64,000 nucleotides of DNA, taken from the NCBI GenBank assembly GCA_963716745.1, contig OY970320.1:320001-384000 (forward strand), read 5' to 3'. Made by a program: the position numbers and the translations under genes. How positions within the stretch are numbered: position 1 is the stretch's first letter; each line of letters begins with the position of its first letter. Shown here in pieces: positions 6,201-53,316 of the stretch. This stretch comes from an uncultured Gemmatimonadaceae bacterium (GTDB taxonomy: Bacteria; Gemmatimonadota; Gemmatimonadetes; Gemmatimonadales; Gemmatimonadaceae). The notes under the pieces were generated by a model. It was not told the origin of the DNA, made no database searches, and saw nothing but the letters and a program-made list of their open reading frames with translations.

Positions 6201-7774
6201 CGCGCCGCACCCGCCGGAGCCGCCGCGCCGTTCACCGTCTTGCCCGAGAGCGCGAGACCGCCGTAGCTCATCCCCGAGAATTCCGAGCGCGCCGCGGCAA
6301 GGGCCGCGAAGGCGTCGCTCGCAGTGAAGTAGTTCGCGCTCTCGCCCAGATACGCGAGCAGATCGGCCATCGCCCACCACACGGGACGCGCCATGCCCGG
6401 CGCGGCCTTCGCCTGCTGATAGCGCTGCACGCGGCCGCGGAGATTCACGAAGGTCCCGTCCTCCTCTGCCATGTTCGTGGCCGGCAGCGCGATGATCGCG
6501 CTCCGCATCGCCTCAGTGAGGTGCGTACCGATCACGATCACCGTGCCGGCGCGCGCCATGGCGGCGCTGTCGGCGTCGCTCAGTTCGTGACCGGCCACGA
6601 GGAGCACGTCGCCCTGCTGGATCCCATCGAACGGCCGCTCAGAGCGCGTGAAGCCGAACATCTCCGCCGCGCGCGCGTTGGCCGCCCGCTCGGCGCGCAG
6701 CGCGAGATCCTTCACGCCGGGCAGCGGTGCTTCCGGGCCCTGCTGCACTCGGAACGTGCCGCGCCCGCCCGTCTTCTTCACGAGACGAGAGATCATCCAG
6801 AGCGACTCGGTGGAGAGCTTCGGATCCACGACGGCATGCACGCGCTTACCGTTCAGATGCATGGCGGCCGCACGCAGCGCGGTCTCCCAATCGGCCGCCG
6901 TGAGACGGTCGCCATGATGCTTCACGAGCGGCGCTTCCAGCCGGTCGGTGCGATTGTAACCGTGATAGTCGAACCGCCCGGTGTCGCAGATGAAGAACTG
7001 GTTCACCTCGGCGTTCTGCCGCGGCTTGATGCGCACCACCATGTTGTCGCGCGTCTCGAGCGTGGTGTTGCAGCCCTGCGAGCAGCCCGGGCAGATGCTC
7101 GGCGCGCGATCCAGCTCCCACGCGCGCGCCTTGTTCAGGAAGTCCTTCGAGACGAGCGCGCCAACCGGGCACAGATCGATCACGTTGGCGGCCCACGGAT
7201 TCGTGAGATCGCGCCCCTCGAACTTGCCGATCACCGCACGGTCGCCGCGCTCGCTCACGTTCAGCACATTGTCGTGCGCCACATCGTCCATGAAGCGCAC
7301 GCACCGCGTGCACAGGATGCACCGGTTGGTGACGTACATGACGTCGCCGCCGAAATCCTCCGCCGGAGTGAAGCGCTTCGGTTCCGGCCCCAACCGCCCT
7401 TCGGCGCGCCCTTCGCGGAACACATAGTCCTGCAGCTCGCACTCGCCGGCCTGGTCGCAGATCGGGCAGTCGAGCGGATGATTGATCAGCAGGAACTCGA
7501 GCACGCCCTTGCGCGCTTCGAGCGCTGCGGGCGAGTACACGTGCACCACCTGCCCTTCACCCGCGGCCGTCGCACACGCGGGCGCGAGCTTCGGCGCCTT
7601 CTCCACTTCCACCAGACACATGCGGCACACGCCCGCGATCGGCAGCGACGGGTGGTAGCAATAATGCGGGATGAGCACGCCCGCGAACTTCGCGGCCTCG
7701 AGGATCGACGTGCCCGCCGGCACGCTCACCGCGCGCCCTTCGATCGTGAGGTTCACCACGCCCGCGTCCGCCAT
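6197..7774 (-). CDS. nuoG: NADH-quinone oxidoreductase subunit G (short, 525 aa)
   Basis: IPHYCYHP, CRMCLVE, HPLDCPICDQAGECELQD, RCILCTRCVRF and DLCPVGAL; start MADAGV at 7774 overlaps the nuoF stop. Confidence 0.95.
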   Translation of the reverse strand: MADAGVVNLTIEGRAVSVPAGTSILEAAKFAGVLIPHYCYHPSLPIAGVCRMCLVEVEKAPKLAPACATAAGEGQVVHVYSPAALEARKGVLEFLLINHPLDCPICDQAGECELQDYVFREGRAEGRLGPEPKRFTPAEDFGGDVMYVTNRCILCTRCVRFMDDVAHDNVLNVSERGDRAVIGKFEGRDLTNPWAANVIDLCPVGALVSKDFLNKARAWELDRAPSICPGCSQGCNTTLETRDNMVVRIKPRQNAEVNQFFICDTGRFDYHGYNRTDRLEAPLVKHHGDRLTAADWETALRAAAMHLNGKRVHAVVDPKLSTESLWMISRLVKKTGGRGTFRVQQGPEAPLPGVKDLALRAERAANARAAEMFGFTRSERPFDGIQQGDVLLVAGHELSDADSAAMARAGTVIVIGTHLTEAMRSAIIALPATNMAEEDGTFVNLRGRVQRYQQAKAAPGMARPVWWAMADLLAYLGESANYFTASDAFAALAAARSEFSGMSYGGLALSGKTVNGAAAPAGAAR

Positions 7775-9084
7775 CAGGCCGCCGCCGCGCTCAGCGGGCA
7801 GGCCTTGCCGCTGATGTGCGCCTCGAACTCGTGCCGGAACTTCTGGATGCCGCTCACGATCGGCGCCGCGCACGAGTCGCTCAGCACGCAGATCGTCTTG
7901 CCCGTCATGCTGTCCGACAGCTCGAGGAGCGTGTCGAGATCCTGCTTCGTGCCGCCGCCGGCCTCGATGCGGTTCAGGATGCGCGTGGTCCACGCCGTCC
8001 CCTCGCGGCACTGGGTGCACTGCGCGCAGCTCTCGTGCGCATAGAAGCGCGCGAGCCGCGCGATCATCTTCACCATGCACACCGAATCGTCGAACACGAT
8101 CACGCCGCCCGAGCCGAGCATCGTGCCTTTGGCGACGAAGCCCTCATAGTCCATGAGCGTCGCCTCGGCCTCTTCCATCGTTTGGATGGGCACGGACGAA
8201 CCTCCCGGGATCACGGCCTTGAAGCGCCGGCCGGGCAGCGGGCCGCCGCACAGGTCGTAGAGGAAATCCTTGAACGGGAAGCCGAGCGTCACTTCGTAAT
8301 TGCCGGGGCGCGCAATGTTGCCGCACACCGAGAAGAGCTTGCTCCCCGTGCTCTTGGGGCTCGAGAGCGACAGCGCCTTGTACCACGCCGCTCCATTCGA
8401 GAGGATGTGCGGCACGGCGCACAGCGTTTCGACGTTGTTGATCGTGGTGGGCATGCCGAACACGCCCGCGACGGCCGGGAATGGCGGCTTGATCCGCGGG
8501 TTGCCGCGCTTGCCCTCCAGCGAATTCATGAGCGCCGTCTCTTCGCCGCAGATGTACGCGCCCGCGCCGCGATGCACGTGCATCTCCAGGCGATGGGCGG
8601 TGCCCATCGCGCGCGCGCCGAGGATGCCGGCGGCGTACGCTTCCTTGATCGCGGCCTCCATCGTCGTCACGCACTCGGTGAATTCGCCGCGAATGTAGAT
8701 GTACGTCGTCTCCGCACCAATGGCGTGCGCCGCGATCGCCGCGCCTTCCACGAGCGCGTGCGGCGTCCAGCGCATCAGTTCGCGGTCCTTGAACGTGCCC
8801 GGCTCGGACTCGTCGGCGTTCACGCAGAGGTAGTGCGGCTTGCCGTCGCCCGGCTTCATGAACGACCACTTCATGCCCGTGGGGAATCCGGCGCCGCCGC
8901 GGCCGCGCAGCCCCGATTCCTTCACGACGTTCACGATGTCGGCGGGCGACATGCCGAGCGCCTGCTCGAGCGCACGGTAGCCGCCGCGCTGCTTCCAGCC
9001 CTCGAGCGTCTTCGCCTGCGGATCGCCGAAGTGCTTCGAGAGCACCGGCGTCTCCTTGGGGTGCGAACGATGCGGATAACCCAT
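7774..9084 (-). CDS. nuoF: NADH-quinone oxidoreductase subunit F
   Basis: SGLRGRGGAGFPTG, NADESEPGTFKDR, GAGAYICGEETAL and ESCAQCTQCREG. Confidence 0.97.
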   Translation of the reverse strand: MGYPHRSHPKETPVLSKHFGDPQAKTLEGWKQRGGYRALEQALGMSPADIVNVVKESGLRGRGGAGFPTGMKWSFMKPGDGKPHYLCVNADESEPGTFKDRELMRWTPHALVEGAAIAAHAIGAETTYIYIRGEFTECVTTMEAAIKEAYAAGILGARAMGTAHRLEMHVHRGAGAYICGEETALMNSLEGKRGNPRIKPPFPAVAGVFGMPTTINNVETLCAVPHILSNGAAWYKALSLSSPKSTGSKLFSVCGNIARPGNYEVTLGFPFKDFLYDLCGGPLPGRRFKAVIPGGSSVPIQTMEEAEATLMDYEGFVAKGTMLGSGGVIVFDDSVCMVKMIARLARFYAHESCAQCTQCREGTAWTTRILNRIEAGGGTKQDLDTLLELSDSMTGKTICVLSDSCAAPIVSGIQKFRHEFEAHISGKACPLSAAAA

Positions 9085-42159: not shown

Positions 42160-42188
42160 TTGACGGTCTTTCCCCCGCCCCATAGGTT
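42160..42188 (+). promoter_or_regulatory. Putative sigma70 promoter of the TetR gene
   Basis: TTGACG-N17-TAGGTT; RBS GGAGG at 42217-42221. Confidence 0.65.
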
Positions 42189-42193
42189 GAATC

Positions 42194-42207
42194 CGAACGG
42201 TCGTTCG
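42194..42207. promoter_or_regulatory. Palindromic TetR operator (PaaR-like)
   Basis: Perfect inverted repeat CGAACG-GT-CGTTCG over the predicted transcription start. Confidence 0.65.
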
Positions 42208-42225
42208 AAGCCATTCGGAGGCTAT

Positions 42226-42849
42226 TTGGCGATAGCGAACAAGGACCAGAAGCTGGATGCCCTCCTCTCCGCGGCCGCCCGGGTGTTCGCCGAGCGCGGA
42301 TACCATCAGACGAGCATGCGCGACCTGGCGCGGGCGAGCGGAGTGTCACTGGCGGGCCTCTACTATTATGTGGAGAGCAAGGAGGAACTGCTCTTCCTGA
42401 TCCAGCAGCGCAATTTCGAGCGGGTGATCGCCGGGATGCGCGAGAGCCTCGCCGGGACCACGGACCCGGTTGATCGGCTGATGAAATTCATCGACAATCA
42501 CCTGGATTACTTCGCCTCGCACATGGCGGAGATGAAGGTGCTCTCGCACGAGGCCGGCGCCCTGTCCGGGGAGCCCCTGCACATCGTGAACGAGATGAAG
42601 AGCGAGTACACCCGCGCTCTCATGGACATACTCGCGGGCATCGAGGAAACACATGGCCCGGCGCATGCCAACCGGCGCGTCGCGGCGTATTCGCTGTTCG
42701 GCATGATGAACTGGATCTACAACTGGTACGACCCGCTGGGCGACCTCGGCGTGGAGCTGCTGGCGCAGAACGTGTGCCGGATCTTCTTGGGCGGATATGT
42801 AGGGCTCCCGGTGGCGATCTCGTCTCTGCCCCGCACGTCCGCCGGGTGA
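42226..42849 (+). CDS. TetR/AcrR family regulator (PaaR/KstR2-like, acyl-CoA-sensing type)
   Basis: HTH AAARVFAERGYHQTSMRDLARASGVSLAGLYYYVESKEELL; C-terminal LFGMMNWIYNWY; TTG start after GGAGG. Confidence 0.92.
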   Translation: MAIANKDQKLDALLSAAARVFAERGYHQTSMRDLARASGVSLAGLYYYVESKEELLFLIQQRNFERVIAGMRESLAGTTDPVDRLMKFIDNHLDYFASHMAEMKVLSHEAGALSGEPLHIVNEMKSEYTRALMDILAGIEETHGPAHANRRVAAYSLFGMMNWIYNWYDPLGDLGVELLAQNVCRIFLGGYVGLPVAISSLPRTSAG

Positions 42850-42863
42850 GTGGACTCCTCTCA

Positions 42864-42944
42864 ATCTTGTTAATCCTGTCAGATGCTCTTCCCATTCACT
42901 ACGAAAAACTGCTTTGACAGGATTGACATGATGAACAACATGAT
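42864..42944. repeat. Inverted repeat made of 9-nt periodic units
   Basis: ATCTTGTTAATCCTGTCA (42864-42881) vs TGACAGGATTGACATGAT (42915-42932), 16/18 complementary; units TTGACAGGA/TTGACATGA. Confidence 0.65.
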
Positions 42945-42996: not shown

Positions 42997-43809
42997 ATGA
43001 CTGCCACCATGAATGAAAAAGCCGCCGCGACGCTCGTCACCTACCGCAAGGAAGGCAATATCGCGGTGTTCGAGCTGAACGATCCGCCGGCGAACACGTA
43101 CACGCACGAGATGATGCGCCAGCTCGATGAGTGCATCATCAAGGCGCGCTTCGACAACGATGTGCAGGTGATCATCCTGCGCGGCGCGGGCGAGAAATTC
43201 TTCTCGGCCGGCGCGAACATCAACATGCTGAACACCGTGGACCCGGTGTTCAAGTACTACTTCTGCCTGCACGCGAACGAGACGCTGAGCCGGCTGGAGC
43301 AGACGCCGAAGCTCGTGATCGCCGCGCTCAACGGCCACTGCGTGGGCGGCGGACTCGAGATCGCAATGGCGGCGGACATCCGCCTCGCGCGGCAGGACGC
43401 TGGCAAGATCGGACTCCCCGAAGTGAACCTCGGCGTGCTCCCGGGCACGGGCGGCACGCAGCGGCTGCTCCGCATCGTGGGCAAGTCGAAGGCGATCGAA
43501 CTGATGGTCACCGGCCGCACGTTCAGCTTCGAGGAAGCGCAAACGATGGGGATCGTGAACGAAGTGTTCCCCAAGGATGAGTTCTGGGAGAGCGTGATGC
43601 TCTACGCCAAGCAGTTCACGCTGCCCGGGAAGGCTGCGATGGCCGTGGGCCACATCAAGCGCGCCGTGCAGAGCGGCGGCGAAGTGCCGCTCGAGTACGG
43701 GCTGGCGATGGAGCGCGAGCTTCAGAGCCTCCTCTTCAAGAGCGGCGATGCGAAGGAAGGCATGGCCGCGTACGTCGAGAAGCGGCAGCCGAACTTCAAG
43801 GGGAAGTGA
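42997..43809 (+). CDS. Crotonase-family protein resembling the N-terminal catalytic domain of BoxC
   Basis: SAGANINML...KYYFCLHANET, NGHCVGGGLE and GLPEVNLGVLPGTGG. Confidence 0.85.
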   Translation: MTATMNEKAAATLVTYRKEGNIAVFELNDPPANTYTHEMMRQLDECIIKARFDNDVQVIILRGAGEKFFSAGANINMLNTVDPVFKYYFCLHANETLSRLEQTPKLVIAALNGHCVGGGLEIAMAADIRLARQDAGKIGLPEVNLGVLPGTGGTQRLLRIVGKSKAIELMVTGRTFSFEEAQTMGIVNEVFPKDEFWESVMLYAKQFTLPGKAAMAVGHIKRAVQSGGEVPLEYGLAMERELQSLLFKSGDAKEGMAAYVEKRQPNFKGK

Positions 43810-45282
43810 GCGCCGCGGTGACCGCCGCCGCGGAGCGGTTCCCGACGCAGCTAGTGATCGGCGGCGAGCGGGTGGATGCCGCCGGCGGCCGCACGTTCGA
43901 CGTGGAGAACCCGGCCACCGAGGAGATCATCGCGCAGGTGGCCGAGGGCGACGCGGTCCGACGTGGACCGCGCCGTCGCGAGCGCGCGCGCGACCTTCGA
44001 GAGCGACGGCTGGCGCAAGATGAGCGCGCGCCAGCGCGGTGCGGCGGTCTCGAAGCTCGGCGAGTTGATCGCGCAGCATGCCGACGAACTCGCGCGACTC
44101 GAGACGCTGAACAACGGCAAGCCGCTCTTCGAGTCGCACATCGATGTGCGGCTCACGGCCGACACGTTCAAGTATTATGGCGGCTGGGCGGACAAGATCC
44201 ACGGGGAAACGATCCCGGTGGACGGCAACTATCTCAACTACACCCTGCGCGAGCCGCTCGGCGTGATCGGCGCGATCACGCCGTGGAATTTCCCGATGTC
44301 GCTTGCGGCGTGGAAGCTCGCGCCGGCACTCGCATGCGGGAATACGATCGTGCTCAAGCCGGCGACGCAGACGCCGTTCACGGCGATTCGCATGGCGGAA
44401 TTGGCGCTGGAGGCCGGACTGCCCGCGGGCGCGTTCAATTGCGTGCCCGGCCAGGGGAAAGCGGCGGGCATGGCGCTCGTGCGACATCCCGACGTGGACA
44501 AGATCGCGTTCACGGGGAGCACGGAAGTCGGCAAGATGGTGATGCGCGAGGCCGCGAGCACCGTGAAGAAGTTGTCGCTCGAGCTGGGCGGCAAGTCGCC
44601 CGAATATCGTCTATGCCGATGCCGACCTCGACGCCGCGGCGCGCGGTGCGCTCACCGGCATCTTCTACGGCAAGGGCGAAGTGTGCGCCGCCGGTTCGCG
44701 GCTGCTCGTGGAGGACACGATCCGCGAGGAACTCACGGCCAAGATCCTGCGAGCGCGCCAAGAAGATGGTCGCGGGCGATCCGCTCAATCCCAAGACGCG
44801 CCTGGGCGCGATCGTCTCGCGCGCCGCAGATGGAAAGCGTGCTCGGCTACATCAAGAAGGGCCGCGACGAGGGCGCGCAGTTGCTCTCGGGCGGCGAACG
44901 CACGCCAGTGAACGGCAAGGGCTACTTCGTTCAGCCGACGATCTTCGGCGGCGTGGAATCGAAGATGACCATCGCGCGCGAGGAGATCTTCGGCCCGGTG
45001 CTGGCGATGATGCAGTTCAGCGGCGGCTTCGACGGCGCGACCGCGCTCGCGAACGACACGATCTACGGTCTCGCCGCCGGCATCTGGACGCGCGACGTGG
45101 GCAAGGCGCTCCGCACCGCGCGCGCCGTGCGCGCGGGCACGGTGTGGGTGAACACCTACAACATCTACGACGCCGCGTCGCCGTTCGGCGGCTACAAGCA
45201 GAGCGGCTTCGGGCGCGAACTCGGCATGTACGCGATCGACGGCTACACGCAGATCAAGTCGGTGTGGGTGGATCTCTCGTGA
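43806..45282 (+). CDS. NAD(P)-dependent aldehyde dehydrogenase (four apparent frameshifts at ~43955, ~44600, ~44750 and ~44825)
   Basis: NPAT, ITPWNFP, FTGSTEVG, LELGGKSP, GEVCAAGSR, EEIFGPV and PFGGYKQSGFGRE, spread over three frames. Confidence 0.92.
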
Positions 45283-46491
45283 ATTCACGCGACGCCGTGA
45301 TCGTTGACGCGGTGCGGACGCCGGTCGGCCGCCATGGCGGCGCGCTGGCCCGCGTGCGCGCCGACGATCTCGCGGCCGTCGCGATCGCCGGACTCGTGGA
45401 ACGCACGAAGCTCGATCTGAAGTCGATCGACGATGTGATCTTCGGTTGCGCGAACCAAGCTGGCGAGGACAACCGCAACGTCGCGCGCATGTCATCGCTG
45501 CTCGCGGGATTGCCCGTGGAGGTGCCGGGGCAGACGGTGAACCGCCTCTGCGGCTCCGGTCTGCAGGCGATCGCGAGCGCGTCGCACGCGATCCGCGCGG
45601 GTGAAGGCGACGTATTCATCGCCGGCGGCGTGGAGAGCATGTCGCGCGCGCCGTGGGCGACGCTCAAGCCCGACGAGGCGTTCACGCGGAACGCTCAAGA
45701 GTCCGCGGACACCACCGTCGGCTGGCGATTCGTGAATCCGAAGATGCCGGCGGAGTGGACGATCTCTTTGGGCCAGACCGCCGAGGAGGTCGCGAAGCGA
45801 TGTAAGGTATCGCGCGAAGACCAGGACAAGTTCGCGCTCGAGAGCCAGCAGCGGGCGGCGAGCGCGATCGCGGCCGGCAGATTCGCCGGCGAGATCGTGC
45901 CGGTGCGCGTGCCCGGCAAGAAGGGCGCGGACGACGGTCGTGGACAAGGATGAGCACCCCCGCCCCGAGACGACGCTCGCCTCGCTCGCGGCGATGAAGC
46001 CGGCGTTCGTCAAGACCGGCGGCACGGTGACGGCCGGTACATCGAGCGGCATCAACGATGGAGCGAGCGCGGTGCTCGTGATGTCGGCGGATGGCGCCAA
46101 GCGCGCGGGAAAGACCGCTATGGCGCGCATCGTCGCGACCGCGGTGGCGGGCGTCTCACCCGAGGTCATGGGGCTGGGCCCGATCCCCGCGATCCGGAAG
46201 GCGCTCGAACGAGCCGGGCTCGCGCTCAAGGACATCGACCTCATCGAACTCAACGAGGCGTTCGCGTCGCAGGCGCTCGCGTGCATGCGCGAGCTGGACA
46301 TGGACGCGGCACGCGTGAACGTGAACGGCGGCGCGATCGCGCTCGGTCATCCACTGGGCGCGTCGGGCGCCCGGATGATCACGGCGCTCGCGCACGAGAT
46401 GCGCCGCCGCAAGGTGCGCTACGGCCTCGCGTCAATGTGCATCGGCGTCGGGCAAGGGATCGCGATGATCATCGAGCGGGTGGACGCGTGA
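45279..46491 (+). CDS. Thiolase, 3-oxoadipyl-CoA thiolase (PaaJ/PcaF) type (frameshift near 45935)
   Basis: [45 protein letters not shown] and MCIGVGQG. Confidence 0.92.
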
Positions 46492-47283
46492 AGTACGAGA
46501 ACATTTTGCTCGCGCGCGAGGCGGGTGTGGGCACGCTCACGCTCAACCGGCCGGACAAGCTCAATGCGTTCGCGGGCGAGATGCGGCGCGAGCTCGGCGA
46601 CGCGCTCGAGGAACTCGAGGCGGACAAGACGGTGCGCGTGATCGTGATCACCGGCGCGGGGCGCGGATTCTGCGCCGGCGCCGATGTGGGTTACATGGCC
46701 GAGCTGATCGCGACGAAGGATATCGTGGCGATGGGTGCGCTCATCGAAGCGGGGCGCCGCGTGGTCGGGCATCATCCGGAAGTCCGCGAAGCCGGTGATC
46801 GCGTCGGTGAATGGCGTGGCCGCAGGCGGCGGCGCGAATCTCGCGCTCGCGTGCGACCTGCGCATTGCGAGCCGCGACGCCAAGCTCGGGCAGACCTTCA
46901 ATCGCATCGGCCTGCACCCCGACTGGGGCGGCACGTATTTCCTGCCCCGCCTCGTGGGGCCGGCCAAGGCGCTCGAACTCTTCTGGCTCGCCGACGTGAT
47001 CGACGCCGATGAGTGCCTGCGCCTGGGACTGTTCAATCGCGTGGTCGCGGCCGACGCGCTGGCCGCCGAGACCAGCACGCTCGCGCGCGCCCTCGCCGCC
47101 AAACCCGCGATGGCGATCGCGATGGCCAAACGCGCGGTGTACGAATCGCTCTCCAAGACATTGCCCGAAATGCTCGACTACGAACTTGACGCGCAGATCC
47201 GCTGCTTCCAGAGCGGCGACGCGCGCGAAGGGATCACGGCGTTCACCGAGAAACGCGCCCCGAAATTCTCCACCGCCACCTGA
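46488..47283 (+). CDS. Enoyl-CoA isomerase, PaaG-like (frameshift near 46765)
   Basis: [34 protein letters not shown] and [19 protein letters not shown] (single Asp, no catalytic Glu pair). Confidence 0.85.
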
Positions 47284-47294
47284 CGGAGCGGCAT

Positions 47295-48410
47295 ATGGCA
47301 CTCACGAAGATCACGAACTTCGACGACTGGATCGACCTGTTCAAAGTGTGGCAGGACGACATCGGCGTGGACGCGTCGGAGCTGAAGGACTACAAGTTCG
47401 ACGTGAAGCTCGCCGACCTCGACATCCCCGAGATCGAATTCGGCCACTACGCCGGCGGCACGAAGTGGAAGACGGTGATGCACATTCCCGACCAGCGCAT
47501 CCGCGATGCGCTGCAGACACTCATCATCTTCCAGGGCGACACGGAATTCGCGAGCGTGGAACAGCAGCGCGCGCTGCTCCAGAACGCGCCGAGCGACTAC
47601 GACCTCATGTCCATCTACCGCGTGATGGCGGAAGAGATGCGGCACGGCTGGCAGATGTCGTATCTGCTCGTCACGCATTTCGGCGACGAGGGGAAGCGCG
47701 AAGCCGAGAAGCTGCTTTCGCGCCGCGCCGACGAGCACGAGCGGCTCCTCGGCTCGTTCAACGAAGCGGTGGAGAACTGGCTCGATTTCTTTGCCTACAC
47801 GGAGTTCATCGACCGCGACGGGAAGTACCAGCTGCAGATGATGTCCACGTCGGCCTTCGCGCCGCTCGCGCGCTCAATGAAGCCGATGCTCAAGGAGGAA
47901 TCGTTCCACCTCGGCACCGGGAACAATGGCTTGCTGCGGATCATCAAAGCGGGCAAGATCCCCACACCCGTGATGCAGCGCTATTTCAACAAGTGGGTAT
48001 CCACGGCGTTCGATCTCTTCGGCACCGACCGCTCGAGCTCGGCGCAGTGGGCGTACACGTGGGGCTTGAAGGGCCGTTTCGACGAGCGCACGAATCCGCA
48101 GCCGGCCGACGCCGCGCGGCTCAACGAAGCGGCGCGCGAGCTCTACCGGCAGGAAGTCCAGGGCTTGATCGACCGGTTGAATACCTACGTCGGAGAGGAC
48201 GAGCAGAAGCTCATGATCCCGAACGTGAAGTTCAACCGGCGCATCGGCGAGTACAAGAAGATGCACTTCGACGTGCACGGCGAACCGATCTCGTCAGTGG
48301 GATACGAGGCCTACGTGGCGTCGGTGCTGCCCACCGCCGAGGATCGCGAATTGCTGCGCAACATCTTCAAGGAAAACGACTGGATCCAGCCCAAGAAGAG
48401 TGACGACTAG
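47295..48410 (+). CDS. Ferritin-like di-iron acyl-CoA epoxidase, BoxB-like (371 aa)
   Basis: QGDTEFASVEQQR, APSDYD, EEMRH, FIDRDGKYQL and FAPLARSMKPMLKEESFH; candidate ligands E84, E114, H117, D173, E202 and H205. Confidence 0.85.
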   Translation: MALTKITNFDDWIDLFKVWQDDIGVDASELKDYKFDVKLADLDIPEIEFGHYAGGTKWKTVMHIPDQRIRDALQTLIIFQGDTEFASVEQQRALLQNAPSDYDLMSIYRVMAEEMRHGWQMSYLLVTHFGDEGKREAEKLLSRRADEHERLLGSFNEAVENWLDFFAYTEFIDRDGKYQLQMMSTSAFAPLARSMKPMLKEESFHLGTGNNGLLRIIKAGKIPTPVMQRYFNKWVSTAFDLFGTDRSSSAQWAYTWGLKGRFDERTNPQPADAARLNEAARELYRQEVQGLIDRLNTYVGEDEQKLMIPNVKFNRRIGEYKKMHFDVHGEPISSVGYEAYVASVLPTAEDRELLRNIFKENDWIQPKKSDD

Positions 48411-49113
48411 CTTCGAGCGCCCACGGCTCATCGCACATCGCGGGATCGCCCGCGAGCGGCCGGAGAACACCCTGCCGGCGTTCTTGCGCGCGCTCGAACT
48501 CGGCGCCGACGGGATCGAGCTCGATGTGCATTGCACCAAGGATCAGGTGGTCGTAGTGCACCACGATGACGTCCCCAGGGCGAAGTCGCCGAACCGCGCA
48601 CTCGCGGGGAAGCGCATCGACGCGCTCACATTCGATGAACTCGAGGGCTTCTCCGTAGAGGGCCAAGCGCTCATCCCGACGCTCGCCGAGGTACTTGGCG
48701 CGCTGCGCGGCCGTCTCGACGTGTTCGTGGAACTCAAGGCCGCCGGCATCGAAGGACCGGTGCTCGACGTGATCCACGACTCGCCCGCCCCGGCACGCTG
48801 CGCGGTGCACAGCTTCGACCATGAAGCGATCCGCCGCTGCCGGTCGGTGGCGCCGACCGTGCGCGGCGGCATCTTGTTCGACAAGCCGCCGGGCGATGTC
48901 GTGGCGGCAATGCGTCACGCCAATGCGCGCAATGTATGGCCGCGCGAGGATCTCATCAATGCCGCGCTGGTGGGCGCGGTGCACGGCGCCGGCGGGCGCG
49001 TGCTCGCGTGGACCGTGAACAAGCCGGAGCGCGCGCGAACGCTCGCGGAGCTGGGCGTGGACGCGCTGTGCACCGACACGCTCGTGGAGCTGCGGCAGGC
49101 GCTGGGCGAATGA
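48400..49113 (+). CDS. Glycerophosphodiester phosphodiesterase family protein
   Basis: IAHRG, PENTLPAF, GIELDV, HD, ELK, WTVN and TD. Confidence 0.9.
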   Translation: MTTSFERPRLIAHRGIARERPENTLPAFLRALELGADGIELDVHCTKDQVVVVHHDDVPRAKSPNRALAGKRIDALTFDELEGFSVEGQALIPTLAEVLGALRGRLDVFVELKAAGIEGPVLDVIHDSPAPARCAVHSFDHEAIRRCRSVAPTVRGGILFDKPPGDVVAAMRHANARNVWPREDLINAALVGAVHGAGGRVLAWTVNKPERARTLAELGVDALCTDTLVELRQALGE

Positions 49114-49973
49114 CGGAACCAAGGCGCGTCGCGGTGATCGGCGCCGGAACAATGGGACACGGCATCGCGTACGTTGCGGCGCTCAGCGGGTACCGCGTGC
49201 GGCTCACCGACGCGGACCCGGCGCAGATCGTGCGCGGCATGGATGCGATCGCGGCGGCGTTCGAGAAGGCGATCGGACGCGGGAAGGTGACCGCCGAGCA
49301 GCGCGATGCCGCGATCGCAAATCTCACTGCAGTGACGAGCGTCCCGGATGCCGTTCGCGATGCCGTTCTCGTGATCGAGGCGATCCCCGAACGGATCGAG
49401 CTCAAGCAAGCGCTCTTCGGACAGATCGAGCCGCTGGTCTCGGACGGAACGCTGCTGGCCAGCAATACGAGTTCGCTGTCGATCGATGAGATCGGCGAGG
49501 GGCTCCAGCATCGCGAGCGCGTGATCGGGCTGCACTTCTTCAATCCCGTGCCGGTGATGCAACTGCTCGAGATCGTGCGCGGCCCACAGACGAGCAGTGC
49601 GGCGGTCCTCTTCGCGTCTCTATTCGCCGCGCGCATCGGCAAGTCGCCGATCGTCGTGCGCGACACACCAGGATTCGCGACGAGCCGCCTCGGCGTCGTG
49701 CTCGGCCTTGAGGCGATCCGGATGCTCGAGCAGGGCGTCGCGAGCGCGGAGGACATCGACCGGGCGATGGAGCTTGGCTACAACCATCCGCTCGGCCCGC
49801 TCCGTCTCACCGACCTCGTCGGACTCGATGTACGGCTCGCGATCGCCGATCATCTGCATGCGACGCTCGGGGGCGCGACCTACGCGGCCCCGGAACTGCT
49901 CCGCCAGAAAGTGCGCGAAGGAAAATTGGGAAAGAAATCGGGCGAAGGCTTCTACCGCTGGGAGAATGGATGA
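49110..49973 (+). CDS. 3-hydroxyacyl-CoA dehydrogenase (PaaH/Hbd type)
   Basis: VIGAGTMGHGIA, IEAIPE, ASNTSS, GLHFFNPVP and DLVGLDV. Confidence 0.93.
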   Translation: MTEPRRVAVIGAGTMGHGIAYVAALSGYRVRLTDADPAQIVRGMDAIAAAFEKAIGRGKVTAEQRDAAIANLTAVTSVPDAVRDAVLVIEAIPERIELKQALFGQIEPLVSDGTLLASNTSSLSIDEIGEGLQHRERVIGLHFFNPVPVMQLLEIVRGPQTSSAAVLFASLFAARIGKSPIVVRDTPGFATSRLGVVLGLEAIRMLEQGVASAEDIDRAMELGYNHPLGPLRLTDLVGLDVRLAIADHLHATLGGATYAAPELLRQKVREGKLGKKSGEGFYRWENG

Positions 49974-50752
49974 TGAGCGACGACGTCGTGCTCTACGAAG
50001 TGCGCGGCCGCGTGGCCGTGGTCACCGTGAACCGGCCGGACAAGCGCAACGCCCTCAGCCAAGCCGTGCGAAGCGGGATCATCGCCGCATTCGAGCGGGC
50101 GCGCGACGATCAGGCGGTACGCGCGATCGTCATGACCGGCGCAGGCGACAAGGCCTTCATCGCGGGCGCGGACATCGGCGAGTTCGAGGGCCGCTCGCCG
50201 GTGGACCAGTGGCGATCGATGTCGGCCGCGCCGGTGTTCGACGCCGCGGAGAAGCTCCCCAAGCCGATCATCGCCGCGATCAATGGATTCTGTCTGGGCG
50301 GCGGGATGGAGATGGCGCTCTCGTGTGACATCCGGATCGCGTCCAGCGCCGCGAAGTTCGGCCAGCCCGAAGTGAATCTCGGGATCATCCCCGGTGGCGG
50401 CGGCACGCAGCGGCTGCCGCGCGTGGCGGGCGTGGGCGCGGCGCTGCGGCTCATCCTCACGGGTGACATGATCGACGCGGCTGAGGCATTGCGGTTGGGC
50501 ATCATCTCGGAAGTGACGGAGCCGGCGCAGCTCATGCCTCGCGCGATGGCGATCGCGGAGACGATCGCATCGAAGAGTCCGGTGGCGGTGGCGGCGGCAA
50601 AAGAAGCGACGCGGGCGGCGTTGAGTCTGCCGCTGGAAGATGGGCTGAGGGCGGAGCGGGCGCTCTTTGCGATCTGCTTCTCGAGTGAGGATAAGGTGGA
50701 GGGCGTGAGGGCGTTCCTCGAAAAGCGGCCCGCTGAGTTCAAGGGGCGCTAG
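49970..50752 (+). CDS. Enoyl-CoA hydratase (PaaF/crotonase type)
   Basis: AFIAGADI, LGGGME and FGQPEVNLGIIPGGGGTQRL (both catalytic Glu present). Confidence 0.92.
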   Translation: MMSDDVVLYEVRGRVAVVTVNRPDKRNALSQAVRSGIIAAFERARDDQAVRAIVMTGAGDKAFIAGADIGEFEGRSPVDQWRSMSAAPVFDAAEKLPKPIIAAINGFCLGGGMEMALSCDIRIASSAAKFGQPEVNLGIIPGGGGTQRLPRVAGVGAALRLILTGDMIDAAEALRLGIISEVTEPAQLMPRAMAIAETIASKSPVAVAAAKEATRAALSLPLEDGLRAERALFAICFSSEDKVEGVRAFLEKRPAEFKGR

Positions 50753-50881: not shown

Positions 50882-51754
50882 ATGATTGACTCGTCACAAT
50901 ATCGGATTACCGACTTTCATATTCACGTCCAGCCCCTCCGTCAACTCAAGCCGGCGGTGATGGACGTGATGCGCCGCGGCAAGGAGCAGTATTTCGACTC
51001 CGTCATGGCGATGATGGACGATCCGAAGCTCCTGCTGCGCGTCATGGATGAACAGGGGATCCAGCGCGTCGGCATGGTGAATTATCCGAGCCCGAACATC
51101 ATGGGCTTCGATGACAGCACCAATGATTTTGCGGCGAAGTACGCCGCCGCGGACCCCAAGCGCCTGCTGCCGTATGGCGGCGTCGATCCGGTGACCACGC
51201 CCGATAAGAAGAAGGCGGCCGCGAAGGTCGAGGATCTCTTGAGCTTTGGCACGCGGGTGCTCAAGCTGCATCCGCCCCACCAGAATTTCGCGGCGAACGA
51301 TTACACCCGCGGACTGGACTCGCTGGCCGCGATCTACCGGACGTGCGAGGCGCGTGGCTTGCCCGTGCTGATCCACACGGGCACGAGCATCTTCCCCGGC
51401 GCCCGCAGCAAGTACGGCAATCCAATGGAGCTGGACGACGTCGCGATCGACTTCCCCGCCTTGCAACTGATCATGGCCCATGGCGGACGGCCGCTCTACA
51501 TGGAAGAAGCGTTCTTCATCCTGCGCCGGCACCGGAACATGATGCTCGATCTGTCCGGCATCCCGCCGCGCGCGCTGCTGGAATACTTCCCGCGCATTGC
51601 GGAGCTCGAGCGCCAATTACTCTGGGGCACGGATTGGCCCAGTCCCGGCGTGGAGAGCATGCGCAAGAACGTCGATCAGTTCCTCGCGCTTCCCTTGGCC
51701 GACAGCGTGAAGCGCGCCGCGCTCGAGACGAATCCCGAGCGCTTGCTCCCCTAG
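50882..51754 (+). CDS. Amidohydrolase_2 family metal-dependent hydrolase/decarboxylase
   Basis: DFHIH, KLHPPH, IHTG, AHGG and WGTDWP. Confidence 0.88.
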   Translation: MIDSSQYRITDFHIHVQPLRQLKPAVMDVMRRGKEQYFDSVMAMMDDPKLLLRVMDEQGIQRVGMVNYPSPNIMGFDDSTNDFAAKYAAADPKRLLPYGGVDPVTTPDKKKAAAKVEDLLSFGTRVLKLHPPHQNFAANDYTRGLDSLAAIYRTCEARGLPVLIHTGTSIFPGARSKYGNPMELDDVAIDFPALQLIMAHGGRPLYMEEAFFILRRHRNMMLDLSGIPPRALLEYFPRIAELERQLLWGTDWPSPGVESMRKNVDQFLALPLADSVKRAALETNPERLLP

Positions 51755-51886: not shown

Positions 51887-53316
51887 ATGCGCCAGTTCGC
51901 CGTCGCGCTCGCACTCGTGTTCGCCGGCACGGTCTCGGCACAGCAACCCGCCAAGTCGTCCGGTGCGAGTGACAGCGCCAAGAAGACCCCGCCAGGCAAG
52001 GGAGCCGTCGCGCTTCCCCTGGCGGACCCATTCCCAAGTACGTACAAGCCGTTCCCGTCGAAGACGACGCTCATCAAGAACGCGACCATCCTCACGGCCG
52101 CGGGCCCGCGGATCGTCGGCGGCTCGGTGCTGCTGCAGGGCGGCAAGATCGTGGCCGTCGGTACGAACGTGGCGGCGCCCGCCGATGCGGTGGTGATCGA
52201 CGGCACCGGCAAGTTCGTCACGCCTGGCCTGATCGACACGCACTCGCACCTGGGCGTGTACTCAGCGCCGGGCGTCGAGGCGAACAGCGACGGCAACGAA
52301 GCGGTTCGTCCGAACACGGCGTATGTGTGGGCCGAGCATTCGGTGTGGCCGCAGGATCCGCAGTTCCCGCGCTCGCTCGCTGGCGGCATCACGACGCTGC
52401 AAGTGCTCCCGGGTTCGGCGAACCTGTTCGGCGGCCGCAGCGTGGTGCTGAAGGTCGTTCCGTCGCGCCAGCGTGCAGGGGATGAAATTCCCCGGCGCCA
52501 AGTACGGCCTCAAGATGGCCTGCGGTGAGAATCCGAAGCGCGTGTACGGCAACCGCGGCGGACCGCAGACCCGCATGGGCAACGTCGCCGGCTACCGGCA
52601 GGCGTGGATCGATGCCGAGGCGTACCGCCGCTCGTGGGACAAGTACCTCGCGGATCCCAGCAAGGGCGATCCGCCGCGCCGCGATCTCGGCATGGAGACG
52701 CTCGCCGAAGTGCTGCGCGGGAACATCCTCGTCCACAATCACTGCTACCGCGCGGACGAGATGATGCAGATGATCGACATCGCGAACGAGTTCGGCTACA
52801 AGATCCGGTCGTTCCACCACGGCGTGGAAGCGTACAAGATCGCGAACGTGCTGGCGAAGGATTCGATCGCCGGCTCGCTCTGGGCCGATTGGGGCGGCTT
52901 CAAGATGGAGGCGCTCGACGGCATCGAGGCGAACCTCGCGCTGCTGGACCACGCGGGCGGCATCTCGATCACGCACTCCGACGACGCGTCGGGTGAGCAG
53001 CGCTTGAACCAGGAGACGGCGAAGGCCATCGCGGCGGGCCGCGCGATCGGGCTCGATGTCTCCGAGGACCAGGCGATCAAGTGGAACACGATCAATCCGG
53101 CGTGGGCGCTCGGCCTCGACAGCCAGATCGGCTCGATCGTTGTTGGTAAGAACGCCGACGTGGTGCTCTGGTCGGGCAATCCGTTCAGCGTGTACACGCA
53201 CGCCGAGATGGTGTGGATCGACGGCGCGATGCTCTATGACCGCGCGGACCCGCAAGATGAATTGGAAGACGGACTTCGAACTCGGCTTCGTGCATACCGC
53301 GGGAGGGAGCAACTAA
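51887..53316 (+). CDS. Secreted amidohydrolase (frameshifts at ~52470 and ~53255)
   Basis: Signal peptide, TPGLIDTHSHLG, LKMACGENPKRVYG, HNHCYR, FHHG and HSDD; C-terminus TDFELG...GGSN* in the 53056-53316 frame. Confidence 0.85.

Follow-up and report, generated by a model that had tools for sequence, protein, structure and literature searches.

The gene described here encodes a short di-iron oxygenase of the BoxB type and lies at 47295..48410 (+) in a 64,000-nucleotide (nt) stretch of contig OY970320.1 (positions 320,001 to 384,000) from an uncultured Gemmatimonadaceae bacterium; this whole stretch is called the window below. It belongs to a run of eight genes, reaching from one crotonase gene, ECH_a (from 42997), to another, ECH_c (to 50752), which follow one another with gaps of at most 12 nt or with overlaps, behind a TetR-family regulator gene. 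A first-pass annotation, made from the sequence letters without database searches, had described the enzyme as stand-alone, which is misleading, as the gene lies within this packed catabolic operon and ECH_a accompanies it in all but one (32/33) of the Gemmatimonadota genomes that hold it. The protein is a relative of the BoxB/PaaA-type aryl-coenzyme A (aryl-CoA) epoxidases, uncharacterised and very widespread.

The oxygenase gene and its protein

The open reading frame (ORF) starts with ATG, with a GGAG 9-12 nt upstream, and encodes 371 amino acids (aa); no indel was listed inside it in the soil short-read contigs that cover the region. The first-pass account of the protein was borne out, in that the ORF is open and the residues E84, E114, H117, D173, E202 and H205 are all there, as are the BoxB-type motifs QGDTEFASVEQQR (residues 80-92), DRDGKYQL (173-180) and PLARSMKPMLKEESFH (190-205). 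When the protein was aligned with BoxB of Protein Data Bank (PDB) entry 3PER, these six residues fell on all six of the BoxB iron ligands named in PMC5489048 (E120, E150, H153, D211, E240 and H243), and they are kept in 49-51 of the 51 short rows of a wider alignment (A3, made up of 51 rows of up to 400 aa, a few of which are fragments of canonical proteins, and 9 longer rows). There is no cysteine in the 371 residues, so the oxygenase binds no iron-sulfur cluster of its own.

A sequence search matched the oxygenase to 3PER with E = 6.4e-59, and the NCBIfam BoxB equivalog model TIGR03225 matched it with 248.6 bits (E = 1.2e-73), short of the model's cut-off of 499.1 (in the genome scan two parts of the oxygenase scored 204 and 34.4 bits). 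Pfam PF05138 (PaaA_PaaC) matched residues 68-255 with 50.3 bits, above its gathering cut-off of 28.5, and the PaaA equivalog TIGR02156 gave 39.2 bits, below its cut-off of 280. On these sequence scores the similarity to BoxB is far beyond chance. The protein is about 100 aa shorter than BoxB, as had been stated at first pass (371 residues versus 462-481, with 471 positions in the BoxB model, 481 residues in the PDB chain and 462-475 aa in the canonical representatives). Alignment with the canonical 462-475-aa proteins (A1) showed four deletions in the oxygenase, namely of an N-terminal segment of about 24 residues, of about 20 residues following the E202/H205 helix, of the big insert of the C-terminal half and of the C-terminal tail.

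Predicted fold and substrate pocket

An AlphaFold2 model of the oxygenase, built from a 60-row alignment, had a predicted local distance difference test score (pLDDT) of 94.9 and a predicted template modelling (TM) score (pTM) of 0.92. The top Foldseek matches to this model were BoxB chains, with the benzoyl-CoA-bound chain 3PM5_A reaching a TM score of 0.90 by query and 0.71 by target at a root mean square deviation of 2.0, while the TM score for PaaA was only about 0.5 and that for SSO1313 (4MUD) was 0.48 by query. This comparison of a predicted structure with BoxB and PaaA, which had been proposed at first pass, thus came out on the side of BoxB. A mismatch between the metal ligands and the BoxB site, named there as the result that would speak against the assignment, was not seen, as the ligands align by sequence and the predicted fold superposes.

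According to PMC5489048, the benzoyl group in BoxB is oriented by Q116, T119, S123, F193, F203/F206 and T210. Their counterparts in the oxygenase are Q80, T83, S87, F155, F165, Y168 and I172, of which five of the seven are identical, including the aromatic-binding F155 and F165 and the thioester-binding Q80, which are conserved. The two differences, F206 to Y168 and T210 to I172, are consistent across alignment A3: Y168 occurs in 46/51 rows of up to 400 aa with F in 9/9 of the longer rows, and I172 occurs in 43/51 with T in 8/9.

We hold with moderate confidence that the protein is a single-subunit BoxB-type aryl-CoA ring epoxidase, likely acting on benzoyl-CoA, that it is coupled to ECH_a and that it is served by a non-dedicated electron donor. 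The two replaced pocket residues bring in another reading, in which the substrate is a substituted benzoyl-CoA (for example 3- or 4-hydroxybenzoyl-CoA or 2-aminobenzoyl-CoA) and the enzyme is perhaps a hydroxylase and not an epoxidase, because the hydroxyl of Y168 could bind a ring substituent. Proteins of the Amidohydro_2 family, which includes aromatic-acid decarboxylases and hydrolases, are linked to the gene in 38 of 81 genomic contexts and would also fit such a substrate. We consider this improbable, as the downstream genes suit the unsubstituted C6 dehydroadipyl-CoA route and as a molybdenum enzyme resembling 4-hydroxybenzoyl-CoA reductase (Hcr), adjacent to the gene or co-occurring with it (see below), would strip a 4-hydroxyl before attack on the ring.

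A distinct and widespread short subfamily

Of 7999 candidates scored in a word-indexed search, 5250 were relatives at E <= 0.001, and the best 120 of these were 65-92% identical to the oxygenase, mostly 370-388 aa long and from Gemmatimonadota where named. Labels given to relatives by their sources were “benzoyl-CoA 2,3-dioxygenase component B”, “PaaI” and “Phenylacetic acid catabolic protein”. An exhaustive search of representatives clustered at 50% identity gave 983 clusters at E <= 0.001, while at E <= 1e-30 there were 142; a handful of full-length short forms and the canonical long forms were among these. With one genome taken per species, at least 598 stretches of DNA encode a relative; 80 of these loci were used for all locus comparisons, and together with the window they make up the 81 contexts. 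The 80 loci come from Gemmatimonadota, Acidobacteriota, Binatia, “Deltaproteobacteria”, Thermodesulfobacteriota, Eremiobacterota and Eisenbacteria, and from archaea of the Thermoplasmatota/Poseidoniales.

In a quick maximum-likelihood tree of 89 rows (the 81 short forms of the 80 loci and the window, with 8 representatives) the short forms split from the three canonical representatives with 100% support in the Shimodaira-Hasegawa-like approximate likelihood ratio test (SH-aLRT), and the Gemmatimonadota formed a single group of 14 rows with 99% support. The earlier proposal of a distinct subfamily is therefore upheld by a score at half the BoxB cut-off, by the four deletions, by this fully supported branch and by a pocket signature of its own, Y168/I172. 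A search for gene fusions (“Rosetta stone” proteins) found only three longer relatives, each a single sequence and none with a reductase domain: one of 797 aa joining ECH and PaaA_PaaC, one of 775 aa joining Aldedh and PaaA_PaaC, and one of 1053 aa with no other domain. The first two may be read-through gene calls.

Organisation of the operon

All genes of the operon lie on the + strand. The TetR-family regulator (42160..42849; Pfam TetR_N and TetR_C_24) is followed by ECH_a, a 270-aa crotonase (42997..43809; ECH_1, 196 bits) in which the catalytic crotonase glutamates E121 and E142 are both conserved, by an NAD(P)-dependent aldehyde dehydrogenase (ALDH; ~43806..45282, frameshifted near 43954, with the NCBIfam ALDH match on 43876-45282 and an intact orthologue in locus L011), by a 3-oxoadipyl-CoA thiolase of the PcaF/PaaJ type (45294..46491, frameshifted near 45911-45953; TIGR02430, 312.8 and 251.3 bits in two pieces) and by ECH_b, a PaaG-like crotonase/isomerase (~46500..47283, frameshifted near 46766; TIGR02280 PaaG, 74.2 and 163.3 bits in two pieces). 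Downstream of the oxygenase are a GDPD-family phosphodiesterase-like gene (48400..49113; Pfam GDPD, 125 bits), which overlaps the oxygenase stop by 11 nt, a 3-hydroxyacyl-CoA dehydrogenase (HCDH; ~49122..49973, a short PaaH-like form; 3HCDH_N and 3HCDH, PRK09260 314.6 bits), ECH_c, a PaaF-like enoyl-CoA hydratase (49970..50752; ECH_1 237 bits, PaaF model PRK09674 253.9 bits versus a cut-off of 371), and an Amidohydro_2 (PF04909) protein (50882..51754; 113.4 bits). Judged from these family assignments, the operon enzymes cover all the post-epoxidation steps of a box- or paa-type route.

De novo clustering of neighbours across the 81 contexts recovered TetR in 51, ALDH in 39, Amidohydro_2 in 38 and HCDH in 25. 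In Acidobacteriota a rhodanese was recovered in 30 contexts and a three-subunit molybdenum hydroxylase after the gene in 17-19. A scan of the operon for promoters and terminators gave none above the shuffled background, and complex prediction for ECH_a with the oxygenase scored 0.00 (mark 0.32), which speaks neither for nor against a complex. Elsewhere the window holds housekeeping genes, with a complex I operon and genes for succinate dehydrogenase, glycolysis and replication. The product of the GDPD gene is divergent (104.5 bits with the closest NCBIfam model, whose cut-off is 264) and has no obvious acyl-CoA role; the gene keeps its place in Gemmatimonadota operons with the short BoxB gene and in those without it (loci L112 and L116).

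ECH_a and the alternation of two oxygenases

Orthologues of ECH_a (at least 55% and up to 87% identity) were present in 58 of the 80 loci, directly adjacent to the oxygenase gene in 24, and ECH_a is more conserved across phyla than the oxygenase, with for example 60-65% identity in the Poseidoniales loci. To follow the two genes through the phylum we used 151 evenly sampled Gemmatimonadota genomes (145 of them at least 90% complete), including the genome of the window itself (G000, a single contig of 3.29 Mb, 89.8% complete). The short BoxB was found in 33 of the 151, with a further partial match of 45% in G148, and ECH_a orthologues (62-87% identity) in 67, twice the number of short-BoxB holders.

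In a survey of PF05138 proteins in the same genomes there were 98 holders, and three classes could be read from the score bands of the best matches: canonical PaaA and PaaC pairs in 30 genomes (286-335 bits), a divergent PaaA/PaaC-like pair, here called the PaaABC-like set, in 35 (107-211 bits) and the single short BoxB in 33 (about 47-57 bits). No genome out of 151 had two of the three classes. ECH_a was present in 32/33 genomes with the short BoxB, in 35/35 with the PaaABC-like set, in 0/30 with canonical PaaA/PaaC and in 0/53 with none of these; the short-BoxB holder that lacks it, G042, has its oxygenase gene on a short contig. The pattern spans nine families. These counts include the unpublished genome G097, which has the PaaABC-like set, ECH_a and the Hcr-type enzyme; without it each of these three numbers falls by 1, and so does its total.

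Eight ECH_a regions fetched from genomes without the short BoxB showed the same operon type, some with one or more genes missing. The genes of L112 and L116 run ECH_a, ALDH, thiolase (L112), ECH_b, GDPD, HCDH, ECH_c and Amidohydro_2, and ECH_b abuts GDPD, leaving no room for a short BoxB gene. Instead, between the TetR gene and ECH_a, both carry genes for a PaaA-like protein (about 129 bits, cut-off 280) and a PaaC-like protein (75-87 bits, cut-off 133), and of the two L112 alone has a PaaB-like ORF (32.8 versus 85.45 bits); no PaaE was seen at these two loci. Among the genomes of the neighbouring family f2 that have ECH_a but no short BoxB, a PaaA/PaaC-like pair lies directly upstream of ECH_a in 10/10.

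This alternation bears on two other readings of the oxygenase. As the operon is built of generic beta-oxidation families and occurs also without the short BoxB gene, and as the own genome showed no match above cut-off to a CoA ligase for aromatic acids, the enzyme might hydroxylate or desaturate a non-aromatic acyl-CoA in a beta-oxidation-like operon. We think this very improbable, since operons without the gene always come with a PaaABC-like oxygenase (35/35), which means that the operon needs a ring-type oxygenase, since the pocket residues F155, F165 and Q80 are conserved, and since the thiolase is of the 3-oxoadipyl-CoA type.

The main rival to a benzoyl-CoA epoxidase is a single-subunit phenylacetyl-CoA ring epoxidase that replaces PaaABC(D)E. 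The operon would then be a paa catabolon, with ECH_b as PaaG, ECH_a as the oxepin-CoA hydrolase, ALDH in place of the PaaZ dehydrogenase domain, the thiolase as PaaJ, ECH_c as PaaF and HCDH as PaaH. It is favoured by the PaaA/PaaC-like set in the same operon of sister genomes, by the finding that none of the 30 canonical PaaA/PaaC holders is among the 68 holders of the short BoxB or the PaaABC-like set, and by a PaaX-type regulator gene (L086:9029-9868, -) that is divergent from the short BoxB gene in an Eremiobacterota locus, L086, where ECH_a lies downstream and not upstream; the three crotonases and the ALDH suit paa and box routes equally, and the lack of PaaK is uninformative (see below). 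We nevertheless regard it as unlikely, because the predicted fold and pocket are those of BoxB and not of PaaA, with five of the seven benzoyl-orienting residues identical, because BoxB does not oxygenate phenylacetyl-CoA according to PMC4498308, because the Hcr-type enzyme that tracks the operon would yield benzoyl-CoA instead, and because the PaaA-like protein that is displaced lies so far under the PaaA cut-off that it is no guide to substrate.

Missing partners and electron supply

The first-pass statement that neither BoxA nor PaaC is encoded in the window, for which we scanned the window ORFs with Pfam, proved correct and extends to the whole 3.29-Mb genome. BoxA is a reductase with FAD and two [4Fe-4S] clusters, and its best match in the own genome was a ferredoxin-like piece of 29.2 bits against a cut-off of 459.2; there was no PaaE match at E <= 0.001, and the oxygenase gene is the only PF05138 gene. 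No reductase candidate was found within the operon, linked to it or in the rest of the window. Consistent co-occurrence of boxA, which the first-pass annotation had considered fatal to its proposal, was not seen among the 151 Gemmatimonadota genomes: none reached the BoxA cut-off and only 3 had matches at E <= 1e-10, none of them among the 34 holders of the short BoxB (the partial match of G148 included).

PaaE reached its cut-off in 1/151 genomes (G067, beside a canonical PaaA/PaaC pair), which shows that the search was able to detect it. Weak FNR-like matches (E <= 1e-15) occurred in 17 genomes, just one of which holds the short BoxB (G142) and one the divergent pair (G044). As the canonical PaaA/PaaC clusters of the phylum, G067 excepted, are also without PaaE, all three classes of oxygenase usually lack a reductase gene of their own here, and an orphan electron supply is a trait of the phylum and no special mark of the subfamily. 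PaaK likewise reached its cut-off in only 4/151 genomes, though 30 have canonical PaaA/PaaC, and it was discarded as a discriminator of substrate because most genomes with canonical PaaA/PaaC do not have it either. Even for ordinary phenylacetate breakdown, the Gemmatimonadota thus seem to use other reductases and ligases.

The own genome encodes a 2-oxoacid:ferredoxin oxidoreductase, whose alpha subunit scored 555.6 against a cut-off of 482.75, as well as ferredoxin-like pieces, and from their sequences these are candidates for the electron source. PMC4498308 reports that small amounts of BoxA suffice and that its interaction is transient, that BoxB is a monomer which requires no structural subunit, and that BoxC, which co-purifies with BoxB, relieves product inhibition. 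Given a transient BoxA and a co-purifying BoxC, it is plausible that the donor here is promiscuous and the crotonase tightly coupled.

A different arrangement was found in six of the 80 loci (L026, L028-L031 and L033), in which ECH_a is lacking and the short BoxB gene is directly followed by genes for a NuoE-like [2Fe-2S] protein and a flavoprotein of the NuoF-like kind. These six form one clade (97% SH-aLRT) nested among the other short forms; the contig of L028 ends within the NuoE/NuoF pair. An orthologue of this reductase in the own genome was rejected, as the only NuoF homologues there are complex I NuoF (window 7774-9084) and a region that we read as a formate-dehydrogenase type (C1:3,111,677-3,115,405), both 37-45% identical to the L029 protein. 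The first-pass proposal of a generic ferredoxin/reductase encoded elsewhere is consistent with the data in so far as no reductase lies in the operon or is linked to it, and such a donor may well serve the oxygenase; the orphan supply itself is no mark of the subfamily, and 6/80 loci have the NuoE/NuoF module.

Two side observations concern possible redox proteins. In the region C1:3,111,677-3,115,405 (L091:7677-11405) a single long reading frame joins molybdopterin domains with NuoE-, NuoF- and NuoG-like ones; the region resembles that of an NAD-dependent formate dehydrogenase, and frame errors may have merged it. In Poseidoniales, a 527-aa protein that matches the FAD/NAD(P) Rossmann fold only weakly lies upstream of the ECH_a/short BoxB pair (L078:7412-8995), and a 197-aa protein with no family match also flanks the pair (L078:11095-11688); both flanking proteins are shared by four archaeal loci (L078, L080, L082 and L085), and the 527-aa flavoprotein is a candidate lineage-specific reductase.

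A molybdenum enzyme that accompanies the operon

In the Acidobacteriaceae locus L084 a molybdenum enzyme is encoded after the short BoxB, and its alpha subunit (1022.4 bits) passes the 4-hydroxybenzoyl-CoA reductase cut-off of 994.55. An Hcr-type alpha subunit (TIGR03194, at least 780 bits) was found in 28/32 Gemmatimonadota genomes with the short BoxB and 31/35 with the PaaABC-like set, compared to 4/30 with canonical PaaA/PaaC and 2/53 with none, that is, in 59/67 genomes of the two ECH_a-associated classes versus 6/83 others. The own genome was set aside from these counts, because its alpha copy is in three frameshifted pieces that sum to about 778 bits. That copy belongs to an unlinked gamma-alpha-beta molybdenum hydroxylase (G000 C1:2,433,174-2,437,055, -), the alpha subunit of which is 46-48% identical to the L084 enzyme.

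New here are the alternation of oxygenases in one operon, the exact profiles of ECH_a and of the Hcr-type enzyme, and the phylum-wide lack of BoxA and PaaE.

Proposed reaction sequence

Benzoyl-CoA is the likeliest substrate because of the BoxB-like pocket and because an Hcr-type enzyme is encoded beside the gene in Acidobacteriota and in the same genomes in Gemmatimonadota, and from these findings we infer a sequence of reactions that also assigns a role to ECH_a and a source of electrons. The oxygenase would form the ring epoxide of an aryl-CoA thioester, most likely benzoyl-CoA, part of which would be supplied from 4-hydroxybenzoyl-CoA by the unlinked Hcr-type molybdenum reductase. Each turnover takes two electrons, which a general donor would provide, such as ferredoxin reduced by the 2-oxoacid:ferredoxin oxidoreductase, with no dedicated reductase of the BoxA or PaaE type. 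ECH_a would then open the ring of the epoxidation product hydrolytically, so that a plain 270-aa crotonase would take a BoxC-like role, and ALDH would oxidise the resulting semialdehyde. ECH_b as isomerase, ECH_c as hydratase, HCDH and the thiolase would finally convert the C6 dehydroadipyl-CoA to succinyl-CoA and acetyl-CoA.

Several points weigh against an epoxidase of benzoyl-CoA coupled to ECH_a. By its sequence the oxygenase stays below the TIGR03225 equivalog cut-off, and the consistent changes of F206 to tyrosine and T210 to isoleucine suggest that the ring may carry a substituent. The best BoxC match in the own genome was ECH_a itself, with 82 bits against a cut-off of 712.3, and ECH_a reached only 127 bits against the cut-off of 300 of the oxepin-hydrolase model; the best matches there to benzoate-CoA ligase and PaaK were likewise below cut-off (221.8 versus 375.25 and 23.1 versus 646.3 respectively). 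The displaced Paa-type set and the PaaX of L086 point to phenylacetyl-CoA over benzoyl-CoA. In L084 the gamma and beta subunits of the molybdenum enzyme fall below their cut-offs (184.7 versus 257.8 and 303.8 versus 404.55), and in Gemmatimonadota the Hcr-type enzyme remains below the curated alpha cut-off (maximum 950.9 versus 994.55) and is unlinked to the operon. Three solutions to one task would give the pattern in which canonical Paa clusters and the operon never occur together in 151 genomes. Related genomes are not independent, so the profile tallies overstate the association, and literature searches found no publication on the short-BoxB subfamily.

A wider proposal, which we put forward tentatively, is that the cysteine-free BoxB-type epoxidase, exchanged in places for a PaaABC-type oxygenase, together with the small crotonase, the Hcr-type reductase and a general pool of low-potential ferredoxin, might make up an undescribed and very widespread “hybrid” route for 4-hydroxybenzoate and benzoate in soil Acidobacteriota, Gemmatimonadota and Binatia and in marine Poseidoniales, with the ferredoxin pool in the place of BoxA or PaaE.

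Relation to known systems and significance

The closest known system is BoxAB of Azoarcus/Aromatoleum evansii, whose BoxB (3PER, 3PF7, 3PM5 and 3Q1G) has the same four-helix-bundle di-iron fold as that predicted for the oxygenase (TM 0.90). The likeness extends to the six ligands and to five of the seven benzoyl-orienting residues, and to the single gene without a PaaC-like partner in the own genome, BoxB likewise being monomeric according to PMC4498308. The oxygenase differs from BoxB in being about 100 aa shorter through its four deletions, in reaching half the equivalog cut-off, in forming a separate clade and in having Y168/I172. The partners differ too. BoxC is a two-domain crotonase of about 550 aa, whereas the conserved partner here is the 270-aa ECH_a, and neither BoxA nor BoxC was detected in the own genome.

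PaaABC(D)E of E. coli (3PW1 and others) shares Pfam PF05138 and similar downstream genes with the system described here, and a PaaA/PaaC-like set (with a PaaB-like ORF in L112) holds the same operon in sister genomes. It differs in the PaaA score of 39.2 versus 280, in the TM score of about 0.5 and in having four or five genes versus one; the own genome has no second PF05138 gene or PaaE match (PaaB and PaaD were not searched there). SSO1313 (4MUD), a 235-aa Sulfolobus protein with no known function, is another short single-gene member of the superfamily and matched residues 57-215 of the oxygenase with E = 4.6e-16, but it corresponds to the core bundle only (TM 0.48 by query, 24% identity) and is without the C-terminal half of the oxygenase. 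The NuoE/NuoF-linked short BoxB proteins of Binatia, “Deltaproteobacteria” and Thermodesulfobacteriota belong to the same subfamily (59-61% identity to the oxygenase) and differ in that a candidate reductase module directly follows the gene and ECH_a is absent.

Surveys of aromatic carbon in soil and ocean count short-BoxB genes as box or paa through metagenome labels, although the BoxA and BoxC partners are missing. If the short BoxB is a true aryl-CoA epoxidase that has another ring-opening partner and lacks a dedicated reductase, a large share of the capacity for CoA-dependent aerobic degradation of aromatics in dominant, mostly uncultured soil phyla would rest on unstudied enzymes. The exchange of the short BoxB for a PaaABC-like set within the same operon is a natural experiment on the replacement of single- by multi-subunit di-iron oxygenases or the reverse, and, as only one canonical Paa cluster of the phylum has PaaE, the question of what reduces these enzymes is general in the phylum and can be tested at the bench.

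Frame changes and a dispersed repeat

The ALDH, thiolase and ECH_b genes and a downstream amidohydrolase gene (at ~52470-52492 in this last) show frame changes compared to the intact orthologues of L011, a locus 87% identical. Soil short-read contigs lack single bases at 43954, 44826, 45932 and 46766, at or near the frame changes (at 43954 and 46766 the contigs hardly differ from the window, and at 45932 the contig is from a more distant relative), and for this reason we read the frameshifts as insertion errors of the assembly and not as marks of pseudogenes. Single-base insertion errors may also explain why the genome is only 89.8% complete despite being a single contig.

The spacer between the TetR gene and ECH_a contains, outside the system itself, an inverted pair (42864..42932, no strand) of a palindromic repeat that is dispersed through the genome, with the core TTGACAGGATTAACATGAT and with its copies in the window at 42864-42881 and 42915-42932. 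The 10-mer of the repeat has 60 copies in the genome versus 1.7 expected, the 19-mer with up to 3 mismatches has 100 copies, and copies are mostly arranged as inverted pairs 18-90 nt apart. It was present in none of 80 related loci, including the 87%-identical L011; this absence and the 60 genome copies rule it out as an operator for the TetR-family regulator, and it may be a lineage-specific element like a repetitive extragenic palindrome (REP) or a miniature inverted-repeat transposable element (MITE), or a shared promoter-like module.

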